Origin: Sulfurimonadaceae bacterium
GTDB taxonomy: Bacteria; Campylobacterota; Campylobacteria; Campylobacterales; Sulfurimonadaceae
DNA length: 36,291 bases
Assembly (NCBI GenBank): GCA_041562555.1
Contig: JBFEXS010000007.1
Span: 1 to 36,291, forward strand
Direction of reading: 5' to 3'
Part shown: piece after piece, positions 30,001-36,000 of the stretch
Position numbering within the stretch: the stretch's first letter is position 1
Layout of the letters: each line of letters begins with the position of its first letter
Program-made: the position numbers

Positions 30001-33000
30001 TTTGCGATGCAAATATAAAACTCTCTATCGGCCTGCGTGTTGCCAACAGACTTAAGCGTTGCGGTGAGATCGCCCGAGAAAGCGCCACATAAAACTGTGA
30101 CGGAGCAAAGATCTCATCCAGATCAATCACAAGGTCAAGCAGACTCATGCCCTGTGACTTATGAATGGTGATCGCATAGGCCAAAGAGAGGGGATATTGA
30201 AACAGGTCGAAACGGCTTACCTCGATCTCCTGCTTCTTTCCATCGACAAGCTGTTCTTTCCACTGTTTTTTGGAATACCGCTCTTTTTCCACGCGCACAA
30301 GCTTACCGTTATCCTTAAGTACATGGATATACCCCTCTTCTTCATTGACACGTACAATCACCCCCTTTTCCCCATTGAAATAGTTCCAGGAGTTGCGCAT
30401 AAAAAGTACCGGAGCACCCACTTTGAGTTCTAAAAATCGTGGAAGACGTGAGTCATTCATAAAACGCTCAATCTCCATATCTTTGGCACCCTTTTCATAC
30501 TTCTCAACTCGGGTCTCAAAAGTATAAAGCTCTCCATCCAAAGCAGAAAGTTCTTTGATATTATGCCGATCGACAGAAACATTTTTTCCAAATAGAAGCG
30601 TATGGTTTTGCATGTCATGGGGCATTGGTCGGATAAGCGAATGAATATAGTGCAAAACCTCATCATCCCTTATACCATAGCGTATTTTCTCCAATACATG
30701 AACAAACTCCGAATCTGAACTTCGTTTGACATCTGAAAGACTATAGGTTTGAAAATCAAAACGTTGCCATGCCTCGGATTCAAAAGCAAAACCATAAATA
30801 CGCTGTATCGGGATATCCGGATTTTCAAATGCAAACCGGTTTTTATCGCTTTCACGGATCACTGGAGGAAGTTGTAAGAAATCACCACTGACGATCAACT
30901 GTGCCTTTGAATCTGCCTGTAAGAGCCGAAGTCGGATCATGTCCATGACCCCTGAGCTCACCATGGAGATTTCATCGATGATAATCAAATCGATCTGTTT
31001 GAGCAGTTTGGAGAGCTTTTTATCGATAGTGATCTTTCCTGTACGTTCAAGATCAAAAGTATGATTACAGATGCCAAGATTAAAAAAGCTATGTAGAGTC
31101 TGTCCACCGATCAAGGAAGCAGCCATTCCCGTTGACGCGAGCTTCGCTATCTTTTTGCCTTCCACCTCATAACTTGCGATAAGTGAGCGTAACAGGTAAC
31201 TCTTCCCCACACCGGCACCACCAGTGAGGAATATATGATTATCTTCAGTGACTAATGTTTTCAGTTTCATCAAATCACTTGGTGAGTCAGCTTCTTTCCC
31301 GTATCTATCCTGCATCTACTTGTATGTAAAACCCAAAGGCCTTTAGACTTCCCCCAAAGCACGTTTGATCGTATACTGCATATCTTCGTCAAGGTCCATG
31401 TTCTTTCGCATCCAATCGATATAGCCTCTGTCACTGATAACCAGATCTTCGATTGTCTTCCCCTTGTGCTTTCCAAAACGAAGCGGCTTGTTCAAATACA
31501 CCGGCTGTTTCGTCAACTCGACCAGTTTTTGCATCGGATTATCTGAAGGATAGAGTTCTTTGACCTTTTTGGTCAATGCCGACATAAAAAGCTTAAGGAT
31601 AAGTACATCCCCAATCGCATCATGTGCTTTGATCTCAACTCCCAGCTTTTGTGCCTCTGCAGCTTCCTCTTTATACAACCCCAGTGCATAACGCAAATAC
31701 TGTAGTCTATGAAACTCCTGCTCCGTATAAAGATGTTTCGCACATCGCAGTGTGTCAATCAACTGCATCTGGTTCTTGAACCCCTCTTTTTCAAGCATTC
31801 CCAGATCAAAAGGGGCATTATGAATGATCATATAATTATCATCGGAATTAAGCTCGACAAGACGTCTATAGGCTTGCATATCTATACAGGCAGGTTTCCC
31901 GGCGATCATCTCCGGAGTAATATGATGTGTCTCCATGGCACCCAGGCCGATCTCGATCTCACTCGAGCAAAACTCATTATGCACCTCAACCCCTTCATTG
32001 GGTCTGCCCAGTACCATATACCCCAGTTGGATGATACGGTCCGATTCTCCGGTACCTGTTGTTTCTGTGTCTAAAATAATATATTTTGCCATGATTGTCC
32101 AGTAGGAAGGAAATTAAAATTCGAGGTAAGGGTTTGCGACAAATTTTTCAGTTATCGTCAGATAATCCAGATTGATTTTCAGCTTGATAACACCACCGCT
32201 CATCTCAATAGGTGCTAAAAGCGTGATGAAATCATAGGTCTGCCATTCGATCAGTTTGTGGTTGAGCTCTTTGTTGATGACTGCCACCGGCTCGCCCAAA
32301 ATCTCATCTATCAATGATGCCACAAACCGCGCAGAATCCGCATTGCACTCTTTACCAAACATTTTACAGACCTTTTCCATAGGAAATTCCAGTTCAGGGT
32401 CTCTATATTCACTACCTTGGTAAGTGTGTAAAATAGCATTTGCCAAACGTACTGCATCATCGCTTGGCCATGCGATCTCTATATCTTTTTGCGCTTCTAT
32501 ATCCGGCTCCTCATCCTCGTATTAGTGATAAAATAAATTATATCACAATAACTATTTACTATGAAACAACTCATAAAAAAGTGCATTCAAATCAAAATGA
32601 CAACGGATCTCATGAGTAAAAACGGAAGGGAGATACTCCAAAAAGAAGTAACCTAACTTGATCATAGGATAAAAGAGGATCACCGACCAGTAAAACTCTT
32701 CGTAGGTAAAATGCTCTTTTAACCACTTTAGGGCGAACTTTCCGCCACTGACTGCAGCAGTCACTTCAAATGCCATGATAAATCCCATAACCAGGTAGGT
32801 CAGGATAAACGCATAGGCAATATAGATAAACCATAAGAATAAACCTGTCATATCGGACTCCTTAATCAAGTCGTCTACTACTATTGTACTACGACATTGG
32901 TGCAAGTCATCTTAGAAGTAAAAATTAATTGAAGTGTTTAGGGGACGAAGCAGATAGACTGCTTCAGACGGGAGAGGTTACTCCCAAGAGGTTTCAACGA

Positions 33001-36000
33001 CCTGCGCTGATTTATCGTAAGGATATTTTTTGACCAAGGCTTTGACATCAAGTTTCTGATCCCCTGAACGCATATAGTGCGCAAGCGTTACCGAAGCCCA
33101 ATAATCTTTTTCATATTTGGTACCTTTCAACTGTACAGGGACCCCTTTGTCATTTACCGTATGACATGCAGAACAGGTCACCGGACCGGCATACTCTCCA
33201 TCAGGACTGTATTGTAGTGCTTGTTCGTGGGTTGTAACATCCACACTTCTGGATTTACCGTCATAACGGGTTGAATAAAGTCCATGCGTTGACTCATGAC
33301 ATGATTGACATGCGATATCCCCATGTCCTTTTGAATAACGATATAGTGAATGTTTATTGTTTTGATCAATTGGGAAATACTCTCCTCCCATACTTTCAAC
33401 GAATGGTGCAGTATGGCAATCTGCACAATGTGGTTCTGACGCACTTAACCACCAGTCATTACCACCCGAAGCAGCCATGTATGGAACTTCTCCACCCGTT
33501 GGGTGATTCCATGGTTTAAGATCCAGTGCACCATCTTTACCCACATTTTTCACCAGTGTCGCAGATTTATGCTCAGTATAATACGCTTGCACTTCATTAT
33601 TGCCCGTTGTCTTTGGATCGATCATCGCATTGAAACGATCTTCATCCCCACCGGCTAACGCGTCAATCACCTCTTTAAGGCTCTTATCACGAAGTGTTTT
33701 ACCCTCTTGTGTCTCTGCTACGACAAGATCATCATGGGCATATAGACCTTGGGCGATTTTAGTATGACAGTTCGTACAATATAGCCCACGAAGCTTTTCG
33801 ACTTTATTCCCTTTTTCATCCTGTGTACTTACATTCTCAAGAAGATACTTACCCACTGAGTTCAAGAAGAAAGGCGGTTTTGCATCCGGGTTACTGTGGG
33901 CATCACGGCGCACATAACATCCACCCCCACTCGTACGGATATCCTTGTCACTGAAACGTCCTTCACCATATCTGTCTGAGACACGTAACGGATTCGTATC
34001 ATTGTTCATCGATGGGTCCTGGAAGTGTGTCGGATGACATGATTGACATGACTGGCTTCTCTCTGCACCATCAGGCATCGGAACAACACCCAAGTGGAAA
34101 CCATGGATCGCTTCGCTCAATGGTTTTGCCTTGACAGCCGTATATCCGGTAGCACCCGGACGTGGTTCCTGCAAGTTACCTGAGACATTATCCCCGTGAC
34201 AGTCCGCACAGTTGATCTCTCCGGTCTTGCCCAGACGGTTTGAAGAAGCCGTGTGGTCATAATCGGATAAAAAGGTTGTGTTGTAATGACTGTCATGCAG
34301 ACTCAAGATATTGATAGAAGCTTCTGACAGGCGTGCCATATATTCACTCTCATCCGGATAGGTCTTCCAATAGGCATACTCTTTATCACTCGCCGTTAGA
34401 CCTTCATCCCTTGCCATTTGTGCTGCTTTTCCCTCTCTTGAGTGACAGGCATAACAATTAGGGATATCGACTGGATTGGTTCCGAAATATTCGACAATCT
34501 GACCGTTGTCAATGATCGGCTTACCATTTTGATCATGCAACTGTACGGTTGATTTTTGAAAAGGCTGGAAATCCTGCTCTGTCACTGAACGGATACTTCC
34601 CTTACGTGTAGAATCATTAAATGCGGTCAAAGGCAGTCCCAAAGCATCCCAGATATGTGAAGCCGTTAGTTTCAGAGGAATATTCTCAACACCCGGTACC
34701 AAGGTGTCCGTAAAGACGATATTACCACCGTCCTTACCGGCATATTCCATATATCCACCGGCCATATGCTTACCTGTCGGACCCGAATCCTGTTTGACTT
34801 TGATGTCTTTCCCCACATACAGTCTGTCTTTTTTCGTCGCACCCGCTGGAATCGTTCCCTCAAGGTCCTTATAGATATAAAGGTGTTTCCAAACATAGTT
34901 CGCGACATTATCGCCCGGATCATCCATATGACCATTTCCGTCCACATCTTTCATGACACCCCAATAACGCATCTTATTCCCTTCAGAATATGAATTATCC
35001 TTGGTGTAATAATAGAGTTTTTGATTGTCATCCGGGGTGATCAATGCCGGTAATGCACCCTGCTTCCCTGTTCTTATCGCTTGGGACTGGATCGAGTTGT
35101 ATGGAGGAATCACACAACAGTAGCTCATCTCAAAGCCTACACAGTGCATACCTAACTCATAGTTGATAAACATCTTATAATCCGTTGACGGATCATAGGC
35201 CTTCTCTTTGCTCCCATCTTCAGCTTCAAAGGTTATGAGCTTTAACTTTGAAAACTTGAATGGAGGGTTCTTATCATATGCACTGGCGAACCCTCCCATT
35301 ATCAGTATTACAGCTAGTAAAATTCCACGTAACTTAACCATTGTCATCTCCCTCTTAATGTAATATTACGACATATACTTTTGCAGTTTTACATAAGATT
35401 TATTAATACCATCTTGATATGTTATTTATTACATTATTTGATAATAACTGTGATAAATACTTGATAAATGAGAATTGATGACTGTTTTAGAGCTTTAATC
35501 CAAACTTTTCAAGAATGTAGATAACACTATAATACGCCATGATCGTCAATGCGATCGAGATGAACATACTTGGATAAAAACCCATGCCTTTTTTGATCAG
35601 AATCGGGAAACTGATAAACAGTGTCATAGATGGGGCAATCAACCAGACAATACGGTTAGAGAATGCTACAGCGCTTTCACTGTTACCCGTATCAATATAC
35701 ATCCATGTCATTGCCAATATAGACACCAACGGTATTGCTGCTAGAAGTGCTCCTGCCAAGCTGCTGAGTTTGGCTATTTCAGAGATCAAAACGATTAAAA
35801 ATGTTGTAATAAGCAGTTTGATGACATAATACGTCATATCAGTCCTTTGTCCTTTTTTAAAATCGTAATATAGCATCTATCAGCTATTCTGTAAACCAAA
35901 ATCTCACTGATCAAAGGCGCTTATTGGACTCTTAGAGTATAAGAATGTATGAAAGCTATAAAGTATATGGACAAAATAAGGTAAGCCAACAAAGAGTTAT

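Follow-up and report, generated by a model that had tools for sequence, protein, structure and literature searches.

A conserved family of heptahaem c-type cytochromes with a haem-free N-terminal domain and a putative oxidoreductase function

We describe a 787-aa heptahaem c-type cytochrome encoded in a 36,291-nt stretch of a Sulfurimonadaceae genome (assembly GCA_041562555.1, contig JBFEXS010000007.1; the window). The gene is real, and its product is predicted to be a Sec-exported c-type cytochrome with seven canonical haem sites. The family to which it belongs is unnamed in any curated database, without a solved relative and uncharacterised; it has a modular build and is under very strong purifying selection. 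We tentatively suggest that the protein may be an oxidoreductase of the periplasm that has cytochrome c as its electron partner and acts on a putative small inorganic substrate.

Gene, exported product and database matches

The gene and the elements at its start are as follows.
32978..35341 (stop codon included), minus strand: coding sequence of the 787-aa heptahaem c-type cytochrome (ORF listing)
35348..35354, minus strand: Shine-Dalgarno-like GAGGGAG, read from the sequence, 6 nt before the ATG at 35341
35279..35341, minus strand: Sec-type signal peptide, aa 1-21 (MVKLRGILLAVILIMGGFASA, with YD after the cut), assigned by eye

The ORF listing also holds a longer ORF (32978..35347), which begins at an alternative ATG at 35347, two codons upstream of 35341. 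Because GAGGGAG abuts this upstream ATG, the start at 35341 is favoured. By eye, the signal peptide is of the plain type, ends in ASA before YD and contains neither a lipobox Cys nor a twin arginine. The seven CxxCH motifs are at aa 296, 378, 432, 522, 639, 678 and 723, and the only Cys residues outside them are 67, 75, 76 and 475. The intact ORF, ribosome-binding site, signal peptide and seven motifs thus bear out the first-pass annotation of a secreted 787-aa protein with seven CxxCH. The source genome has no paralogue of the cytochrome, and its other multihaem ORFs are unrelated to it (blastp E > 0.003).

The same annotation had found only sub-threshold Pfam similarity. This is correct for MtrC-MtrF_II-IV (PF22113; 25.7 bits, cut-off 30) and incorrect for Cytochrome_C7 (PF14522), which reaches 33.8 bits (whole-protein cut-off 24.8), its best stretch (aa 636-728) covering the C-terminal module only. 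Both matches reflect generic haem packing, because they also occur in three multihaem ORFs of the source genome that are unrelated to the cytochrome, with 23-32 bits for MtrC-MtrF_II-IV. As reported before, there is no NCBIfam family (nothing near any cut-off, best E 0.0062) and no PDB sequence match (phmmer, 0 matches at E <= 10). A family profile found nothing relevant to the heptahaem family in the PDB, an N-domain profile gave no fold hint there (best E 0.28), and a search of the ESM Atlas with aa 25-290 returned no usable match for the N-domain. Solved c7 chains give a weak alignment with the c7-like tail, in which the GH...CxxCH arrangement recurs (profile against PDB, E 1.6). In a full-text literature search, with subscription journals outside its scope, neither the family nor any of four accession numbers is described, and the sections covered of PMC11748539 and PMC10045233 do not mention it.

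Modular architecture and strong conservation

Four modules and two conserved Cys sites can be placed on the gene.
34472..35209, minus strand: haem-free N-domain, aa 45-290; no Pfam family, no PDB match, common to the P0246 family
35093..35161, minus strand: hyper-conserved motif YELGMHCvGFemSYCCViPPYNS, aa 61-83, with M65, H66, C67, C75 and C76 (alignment)
33752..34480, minus strand: haem core, aa 288-530, haems 1-4 (CxxCH 296, 378, 432, 522; motifs and alignment)
33917-33919, minus strand: C475, in the haem core
33467..33751, minus strand: haem-free linker, aa 531-625, of lower conservation and clade-dependent length
33047..33466, minus strand: C-terminal trihaem module, aa 626-765 (CxxCH 639, 678, 723; H673, H686, H755), the Cytochrome_C7-matching stretch

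Haems 1-3 represent an ancestral unit in common with another family. The unnamed P0246 family shares the N-domain and haems 1-3 with the heptahaem family, H66, H349, H413 and H416 included (hhalign probability 99.6%, E 9e-25, query aa 47-439). P0246 itself is a 900-aa protein in which this module is duplicated, with two copies of the N-domain and about six haems; it differs from the heptahaem family in lacking C75/C76, the N-domain insert and the c7-like tail, and its first haem site is CX4CH. An internal duplication of the haem region of the heptahaem cytochrome itself was looked for and is not shown: the alignment is limited to 26 columns at one motif (82% probability).

Compared with its orthologues in five genomes, the cytochrome is 84/73/75/71/76% identical, while ClpA is 73/67/61/60/59% and transaldolase 66/58/56/55/53% identical; conservation of the cytochrome exceeds that of the chaperone ClpA by 10-17 identity points in the same genome pairs. 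Recent horizontal spread is unsupported as the source of this high identity, since the cytochrome tree tracks genera and mostly families (5 label changes where 4 is the minimum, one family, f1, being split in two). Over 91 sequences from many phyla, 43 columns are invariant, including E321, W325, H349, D350, R369, H413, H416, D424, D467, R469, R479 and H482 of the haem core as well as H673 and H686. In this larger set, six of the residues previously listed as invariant (H349, D350, H413, H416, R479 and H482) keep that status, and R428 and D480 are only at least 90% conserved. A 58%-identical paralogue retains 34/34 key residues. The haem-free N-domain of about 250 aa, with the motif set GMHC..YCC..PPYN and LGLPLT, is conserved as well as the haem part, and the whole protein has one haem per 112 residues.

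Nine non-motif His residues are conserved (66, 349, 413, 416, 439, 482, 673, 686 and 755); with seven haems to be ligated, at least two are spare. C67, C75 and C76, arranged as C67-X7-C75-C76, and C475 behave as one unit: 82 of 85 sequences have all four, and the other 3 have none of them. Because this Cys4 unit can go while all haem-domain invariants remain, it is not the catalytic heart of the protein.

These features bear on the possibility, which we consider unlikely, that the protein is a non-catalytic periplasmic carrier or electron store (a "capacitor") between the cytochrome c pool and other enzymes, with the N-domain as a docking module. The c7-like trihaem tail would suit such a role, and the nine conserved His would suffice for all seven haems as bis-His carriers, which counts against an enzyme; similarly, the conserved Arg and Asp may merely hold haem propionates. 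However, the low haem density, the equally conserved haem-free domain and the invariant E, W, D and R outside the haem motifs speak against a carrier, as does conservation above that of ClpA, given that carriers usually drift faster.

Distribution and gene neighbourhoods

The family had been taken for an orphan of Campylobacterota. Instead, relatives are encoded at at least 510 loci (one-genome-per-species contigs) in many phyla and groups, including Nitrospirota, Nitrospinota, Chloroflexota, sulfur-oxidising Gammaproteobacteria, Methylomirabilota and KSB1. Earlier figures for its spread were reproduced: matches occur in 38 of 401 Campylobacterales genomes (source included) from five families, the full-length ones being 71-84% identical, and the representatives contain 382, 180 and 71 relatives at E <= 1e-3, 1e-10 and 1e-30, respectively. 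Carriage in five lineages is 38/401 (Campylobacterales), 15/61, 14/33, 7/43 (Acidiferrobacteraceae) and 23/64 genomes, and this patchy, dispensable spread would fit a carrier. In Sedimenticolaceae, Nitrospinota, one Nitrospirota order and the Campylobacterales families f1, f4 and f19, the share of searched genomes that carry the family lies between a quarter and two fifths. Cultured carriers are Thioalbus denitrificans, Sulfurovum mangrovi, Sulfurovum zhangzhouensis and Sulfurimonas sp. C5. Exactly seven CxxCH motifs are present in 73 of 91 aligned members, the rest having added or fused haems and one having six. Systematic split forms were rejected, the 114 shorter matches being mostly contig-end truncations.

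The gene had also been described as standing alone. There is indeed no helper gene at the window's own locus and no conserved neighbour within the window, but several clades do have conserved neighbours. In one Campylobacterales clade, a periplasmic MORN-repeat gene is strictly linked to the cytochrome gene, and in a gammaproteobacterial/Nitrospinota clade the cytochrome gene is followed by genes for a PPIase and a thioredoxin-like protein. At clade-II-like loci, a PPIC-type PPIase gene is at most three genes away in 22 of 27 cases and a Redoxin-type thioredoxin gene is found in 11 of 27. Such dedicated helper genes argue against a mere carrier. PPIases, nevertheless, accompany non-catalytic large cytochromes too. 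Class-I cytochromes c recur as partners: Chloroflexota forms have an N-terminal dihaem class-I cytochrome c fused to them, P0126 and P0132 a monohaem one, and a class-I cytochrome c gene of 101-103 aa adjoins or lies near the cytochrome gene at loci L090 and L122. Neighbours in three lineages are regulators or sensors of O2/NO/redox type, i.e. protoglobin-PsiE with CBS and HPP in Nitrospirota, a response-regulator-hemerythrin protein in Thiodiazotropha and Rrf2 at locus L109. No neighbour at the mapped loci names a substrate, which again would be compatible with a carrier.

Several candidate associations were discarded. A CcsBA gene lies near the cytochrome gene at 8 of 21 Campylobacterales loci, yet it is the sole CcsBA in 5/5 genomes and hence no dedicated haem lyase; the source genome has one CcsBA, split over two contig ends. 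A link to cd1-type denitrification was rejected: of the 38 carriers, 24 have PF02239 (140/401 genomes overall) and 14 lack it, and 11 of the latter have 99-100% complete genomes. A genomic island at tRNA-Leu found no support, with no tRNA-derived direct repeats and a GC content of 0.42-0.48 like that of the neighbours. Upstream of the gene, no common sigma-54, FNR or NssR site is consistent in 21 loci.

The architecture of distant relatives raises the alternative that the protein is a cell-surface or secreted electron-transfer cytochrome similar to MtrC/OmcA, which would exchange electrons with solids (S0, Fe/Mn minerals, partners) or shuttles, the N-domain being a binding barrel and CX7C(C) a redox-gated disulfide. 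All 14 long relatives (30-33% identical) carry Ig-like arrays (PKD, Big_9, cadherin, ASH), several 9-haem forms have PKD/Big_9/cadherin arrays as well, and a simple pattern search picks out lipobox-like signals in 14 of 91 members. Because such arrays are typical of surface proteins, they leave room for an electron-transfer role other than that of an enzyme. MtrC-MtrF_II-IV, weak in the window's protein, is above its cut-off in five relatives (P0125, P0126, P0134, P0146 and P0153; 35-39 bits), and the Cys loop in the haem-free domain recalls the CX8-15C redox disulfide in domain III of MtrC, as given in PMC4486940, with CX7C in its place here. We nevertheless judge a surface function rather improbable. 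The signal peptide is plain, there are seven haems and not ten, and the c7 and MtrC matches are unspecific. Also, a porin, decahaem or quinol-dehydrogenase partner adjoins the gene at none of the 97 mapped loci (21 from Campylobacterales and 76 from other lineages; the window plus 96 others), the source genome has no decahaem ORF, and the fusions to class-I cytochrome c point to a periplasmic high-potential chain.

A candidate cytochrome c-linked oxidoreductase

Returning to the periplasmic oxidoreductase, we favour an enzymatic role because polar residues around haems 1-4 are invariant, conserved His outnumber the need of the haems, fusion partners and neighbours are class-I cytochromes c, one clade has its own PPIase and thioredoxin genes, and porin and quinol-dehydrogenase partners are absent from the mapped loci. 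The first-pass annotation had proposed a periplasmic multihaem enzyme of sulfur or nitrogen compounds specific to Campylobacterota; the high conservation is real and the features lean towards an enzyme, while the taxonomic restriction falls away and nothing favours either sulfur or nitrogen as substrate. In a possible mechanism, the single CcsBA of the organism would attach the haems, and the N-domain would pack onto haems 1-3, where its M65/H66 would form part of a haem pocket. The Cys4 unit might be a disulfide staple of the N-domain to the haem domain, a redox switch or a metal site. Turnover of a small inorganic compound (an N-, S- or O-species) would take place where the N-domain meets the first haems, and a soluble class-I cytochrome c would deliver or accept electrons through the C-terminal trihaem module.

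Among known systems, MtrC, OmcA, MtrF and UndA of Shewanella resemble the heptahaem cytochrome in being large c-type cytochromes with haem-free domains beside multihaem domains, in their weak PF22113 similarity and in the surface-exposed appearance of some distant relatives. However, their haems number ten or eleven and are arranged in two pentahaem domains; the heptahaem protein, in turn, has its own N-domain motif set (GMHC, PPYN and LGLPLT), a fourth Cys in the haem domain, a sub-threshold PF22113 match, no lipobox and no MtrA/MtrB-type decahaem-porin pair. No PDB chain matches at E <= 10, these four proteins included.

The octahaem sulfite reductase MccA/SirA occurs in Campylobacterota; a structure of MccA is in the PDB, and in MccA two Cys hold Cu(I). 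Like MccA/SirA, the heptahaem cytochrome is periplasmic, of low haem density, about 700-800 aa long and equipped with extra conserved Cys. By contrast, it has seven CxxCH and not eight haems, no CX15CH and no further Cys before His or Lys, no PDB match, no CcsBA of its own (5/5 genomes have a single copy each), and no MccC/MccD-type, iron-sulfur or NrfD-type partners among annotated neighbours. Clade-II relatives come with a PPIase gene and a periplasmic thioredoxin gene of their own and recall the Shewanella sir cluster, which contains the same pair (sirH, sirI) according to the gene table of PMC5955497. Solved NrfA, HAO, ONR and OTR enzymes, marked by CxxCK or another special active-site motif, are not among any PDB matches, and all seven motifs of the window's protein are CxxCH. 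In the case of cytochrome c7 (PpcA type), a 70-aa carrier, the likeness is a generic signal, and the c7-like module is a mere tail of a 787-aa protein.

Multihaem cytochromes catalyse key steps in the nitrogen, sulfur and metal cycles, and NrfA, HAO, MccA and OTR each opened a pathway. More speculatively, and with more doubt than we attach to an oxidoreductase as such, the family could be a new multihaem enzyme class spread among chemolithotrophs and microaerophiles of at least ten phyla. Its haem-free domain, of a kind not described before, would cap a trihaem core as the active site, with the Cys4 unit as redox switch or metal site and the c7-like tail wiring it to the cytochrome c pool, and it would perform a step on inorganic N, S or O compounds, with NO, hydroxylamine, sulfite, polysulfide and peroxide as examples, to which no enzyme of these organisms is currently assigned. 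The heptahaem family is a well-defined target, combining conservation beyond that of a chaperone with the lack of a database name and of a solved relative; cultured carriers exist, and the conserved residues are direct targets for mutagenesis. Even if the protein were only a carrier, the N-domain and trihaem module would still be a new building block in cytochrome evolution.

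Gene and genomic surroundings

The data reported here show that the window encodes a real, exported heptahaem cytochrome, which belongs to a wide, unnamed family with a new N-terminal domain and clade-specific helper genes. Its locus contains the following features.

32978-35341, minus strand: cytochrome ORF, 787 residues (789 from an alternative ATG at 35347)
Upstream of the cytochrome gene: tRNA-Leu and a 129-aa membrane ORF
32114-32446 and 32552-32905, downstream of the cytochrome gene: two small ORFs with no Pfam family
Within 29954-32905, minus strand, downstream beyond the two small ORFs: PIF1-like helicase and ExoX/RNase T-like exonuclease

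ATG 35341 is the likelier start because the sequence GAGGGAG lies 6 nt ahead of it, while the same sequence abuts ATG 35347 with zero spacing. No terminator-like or promoter-like site at the gene exceeded shuffled sequences. The N-terminus, MVKLRGILLAVILIMGGFASA with YD following the cut, was read by eye as a Sec signal peptide; it has neither a lipobox nor a twin arginine. All seven haem motifs (residues 296, 378, 432, 522, 639, 678 and 723) are CxxCH, with no special motif among them, and the only remaining cysteines are residues 67, 75, 76 and 475, none of which has His or Lys directly after it. Within the gene, 33296-33312 and 34034-34050 are exact direct copies of 17 nt; they correspond to the two CQSCH motifs (residues 432 and 678), written in the same codons.

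Elsewhere in the window, a nuo operon (13502-26681, plus strand) encodes a fused NuoCD (14357-16051), a true NuoE together with NuoF (16048-17780), as well as a short, 517-aa NuoG. Identity between the NuoD part and the best NuoD in five other Campylobacterales is only 35-41%, compared with 59-73% for ClpA, and the operon appears to encode a second or foreign-type complex I. An FCSD-type sulfide dehydrogenase flavoprotein with a Tat signal (28239-29612, plus strand) has no adjoining cytochrome subunit, is matched in only one of five relatives (34% identity) and is adjoined by a Rieske-domain protein (27140-27868, minus strand) and a 133-aa ORF. Four other multihaem ORFs of this genome (G000) all stand alone and have no specific family name: C24:21306-22619 (437 aa, 8 haems), C100:2323-5055 (a 910-aa lipoprotein with 5 haems that adjoins a molybdopterin oxidoreductase and a response regulator), C21:20242-22095 (617 aa, 5 haems, acidic C-terminal repeats) and C9:22910-23257 (115 aa, 4 haems).

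Distribution and constraint of the family

No curated model or solved structure was found for the family, and a full-text search of literature other than subscription journals found no description of it. The first-pass annotation had reported no NCBIfam family and no PDB sequence match, and both points are borne out: nothing in NCBIfam came close to any cut-off, and the cytochrome sequence gave 0 matches in the PDB at E <= 10. PDB searches with the family profile (top SoxA, E 0.17, and c7, E 1.6) and with the profile of the N-domain (top E 0.28) likewise returned no match. The further statement that the Pfam matches were sub-threshold holds for MtrC-MtrF_II-IV (25.7 bits, cut-off 30) but not for Cytochrome_C7 (33.8 bits against a whole-protein cut-off of 24.8; best stretch 636-728). 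As a control, we used three other large multihaem ORFs of G000 that are unrelated to the cytochrome (blastp E > 0.003). They match the same two Pfam models with E 1e-5 to 1e-8, and these matches therefore reflect haem-motif packing and not kinship. The family lies within the multihaem cytochromes c and is not another kind of system.

Among Campylobacterales, 38 of 401 genomes carry the cytochrome, G000 included. Leaving G000 out, the carriers fall in five families (f1, 12/38; f4, 9/22; f6, 5/39; f17, 1/22; f19, 10/32), and none was found in the 21 other families searched. Over full-length matches, identity is 71-84%, in agreement with what had been claimed for several families of this order; a 59% paralogue is present in two genomes, and a tandem pair in one. 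By contrast, the view of the protein as an orphan defining a family of Campylobacterota has to be abandoned, as there are at least 510 confirmed loci (on one-genome-per-species contigs) in many phyla. Scoring of 8000 candidates gave 698 proteins at E <= 0.001, and the family has 382 representatives at 50% clustering. Beyond Campylobacterales, where taxa were taken from record titles, relatives are assigned to Nitrospirota, Nitrospinota, Chloroflexota, Methylomirabilis, KSB1, Latescibacterota, Omnitrophota, Bacteroidota, Smithellaceae and others, and, within Gammaproteobacteria, to Thiodiazotropha, Sulfuricaulis, Sulfurifustaceae, Ectothiorhodospiraceae and Methylothermaceae. Prevalence is patchy in every lineage, and within-lineage identity is mostly above 70%.

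Carriers and identity in lineages beyond Campylobacterales
Family of a Thiodiazotropha genome: 15/61 carriers, 67-80% identity (full-length matches)
Nitrospinota: 14/33 carriers, 72-76% identity
Family of a Sulfuricaulis genome: 7/43 carriers, 71-76% identity (long form)
A Nitrospirota order: 23/64 carriers, 71-89% identity

In a FastTree phylogeny of 91 members (747 columns), three main groups are present: a KSB1/Omnitrophota-type clade; Gammaproteobacteria, Nitrospinota, Methylomirabilota and others; and Chloroflexota with a Nitrospirota group and Campylobacterota, the last forming a single branch (support 100) that adjoins the Nitrospirota group. In a quick IQ-TREE phylogeny of 30 Campylobacterales sequences and four outgroups, each genus and families f4 and f6 form single branches, f1 is split (genera g1, g5 and g7 apart from g2), and family labels change 5 times against a minimum of 4. 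Identity to G000 was also compared with that of two other proteins in the same genome pairs.

Percent identity to G000 for cytochrome, ClpA and transaldolase
G110: 84, 73, 66
G241: 73, 67, 58
G054: 75, 61, 56
G044: 71, 60, 55
G381: 76, 59, 53

Because the Campylobacterales tree tracks genera and, for the most part, families, the high identity stems mostly from selection and not from recent spread. The family is under very strong constraint.

Protein architecture and the four-cysteine unit

In the alignment of 91 family members, 43 columns are invariant. Six of the seven haem motifs are among them, as are E321, W325, H349, D350, T355, R369, H413, H416, D424, D467, R469, R479, H482, H673, H686 and D701. 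Thus, H349, D350, H413, H416, R479 and H482 keep the invariance previously ascribed to them, while R428 and D480 are conserved to at least 90%. Exactly seven CxxCH motifs are found in 73 of the 91 members; 17 of the others have eight or nine owing to inserts or a fused cytochrome c, and the remaining member has six.

Residues 45-290 form the haem-free N-domain, which contains YELGMHCxGFxxSYCCVxPPYNS as its motif and WDALGLPLTxFxD as a second block. This domain, haems 1-3 and H349, H413 and H416 are shared with a separate family represented by P0246 (hhalign 99.6% probability, E 9e-25, query 47-439), and the N-domain with its trihaem unit is therefore the ancestral core. P0246 itself, a distant relative of 900 aa, has the module of N-domain and haems in tandem duplicate and CX4CH in place of CxxCH at its first haem site. 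The tail (residues 626-765) is c7-like; when the two haem regions were aligned with each other to look for a duplication, only a 26-column motif match was obtained.

Nine conserved His residues outside the motifs (66, 349, 413, 416, 439, 482, 673, 686 and 755) are available for seven haems, and M65 is likewise conserved. That these suffice for seven bis-His haems speaks against an enzyme and for a plain electron carrier, which we nevertheless regard as improbable. The absence of a special haem motif and of any hint of a substrate likewise counts against an enzyme. A periplasmic oxidoreductase linked to the cytochrome c pool, a reading that we favor only tentatively, is instead suggested by the spare conserved His, by invariant residues of acidic, basic and aromatic type, by a haem number that is fixed and by the conservation of the haem-free domain to the same extent as the haem part. 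Such an enzyme would have its working site at the contact between the N-domain and the first haems.

C67, C75, C76 and C475 occur together in 82 of the 85 sequences that cover the N-domain and are all missing in the other three (L065, P0149 and P0131), with no partial set among the 85. The three Cys-less proteins occupy two places in the tree, and the cysteines were therefore probably lost twice. Of 142 columns conserved to at least 93%, 13 are changed in all three (Y61, C67, G69, C75, C76, Y81, L154, G177, V209, T211, L234, P290 and C475), while the haem-domain invariants and M65/H66 are all kept. Given this all-or-none pattern and the intact haem invariants, the cysteines form one functional but accessory unit that links the N-domain with the haem domain. 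We infer that this unit may be two disulfides (C67-C75 and C76-C475), a redox switch or a metal site. The Cys loop of the N-domain recalls the redox disulfide in a Cys loop described for MtrC (PMC4486940), and this counts against an enzyme and in favor of electron transfer at the surface.

Neighboring genes, fusions and candidate function

The earlier description of the gene as standing alone is correct for the window's own locus, where there is no conserved neighbor and the flanking ORFs recur in 0 of 20 other loci, but not for other clades, where the cytochrome is accompanied by a MORN gene or by PPIase and thioredoxin genes. At 12 of the 21 loci from Campylobacterales, the cytochrome is adjoined by a periplasmic MORN_2-repeat protein that has a signal peptide (e.g. 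L037:10451-11128 and G381:C12:286792-287430), and in several loci a second, more distant MORN gene adjoins the first. Full-length orthologues at E <= 1e-50 are present in 20 of the 401 genomes, all 20 of which have the cytochrome at a distance of 8-875 bp; none reaches this threshold in the 363 cytochrome-less genomes, where weaker MORN paralogues are common. Since the 20 carriers group in a single clade (support 99) of the cytochrome tree, they represent a single gain kept in four families and not 20 events. By tblastn, G000 (88.9% complete) has no MORN gene of this type.

Loci of other lineages were grouped by tree, or by record title if not in the tree. Of 27 loci in the Gammaproteobacteria/Nitrospinota-type clade, 22 have a PPIC-type PPIase and 11 a Redoxin-type thioredoxin at most three genes away; both are almost absent in the other groups (0/14, 0/10 with thioredoxin in 1/10, 0/13 and 0/12). 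The Sulfuricaulis-type gene order is sigma-54 regulator, 9-haem paralogue, PPIase, 7-haem paralogue and thioredoxin. Two-paralogue operons, in which a sigma-54 response regulator precedes the paralogues and the PPIase gene lies between those of ~1030 aa (9-haem) and ~775 aa (7-haem), are found at L095, L099, L111, L091 and L071 (~4800-11900), and the two paralogues co-occur in 6 of 7 carrier genomes of the Sulfuricaulis-type family. In Nitrospirota, the cytochrome is adjoined by a protoglobin-PsiE fusion, a CBS-pair protein and an HPP-family membrane protein (L105:8329-10475, L102:12475-14655, L106, L118, L093, L114 and L127), and in Thiodiazotropha a response-regulator-hemerythrin is nearby. 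One other-lineage locus has an Rrf2 regulator, and a small class-I cytochrome c gene is present at two.

Fusions are also present. Chloroflexota forms have an N-terminal dihaem class-I cytochrome c, and P0126 and P0132 a monohaem one. PKD, Big_9, cadherin-like and ASH arrays occur in 14 distant long forms (1404-1789 aa, 30-33% identity), and the same types of Ig-like array in many 9-haem forms. These relatives resemble surface proteins, which, like the MtrC-type Cys loop, weakens the case for an enzyme. However, none of the mapped loci has a porin-cytochrome, iron-sulfur or NrfD-type partner, and with no outer-membrane conduit we consider a surface electron-transfer role rather unlikely. The missing conduit and the class-I cytochrome c fusions and neighbors point instead to the periplasmic oxidoreductase, as does the PPIase and thioredoxin pair of the gammaproteobacterial/Nitrospinota-type relatives, which resembles sirH and sirI of the Shewanella sir cluster, as named in the gene table of PMC5955497.

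Two further candidates were tested: a tie to cd1 nitrite reductase denitrification was not found, and a dedicated haem lyase was rejected.

Among the cultured carriers are Thioalbus denitrificans, Sulfurovum mangrovi, Sulfurovum zhangzhouensis and Sulfurimonas sp. C5, in all of which the protein is annotated 'hypothetical protein'. The breadth and conservation of the family, together with these cultured carriers, make it a good target for experiments.
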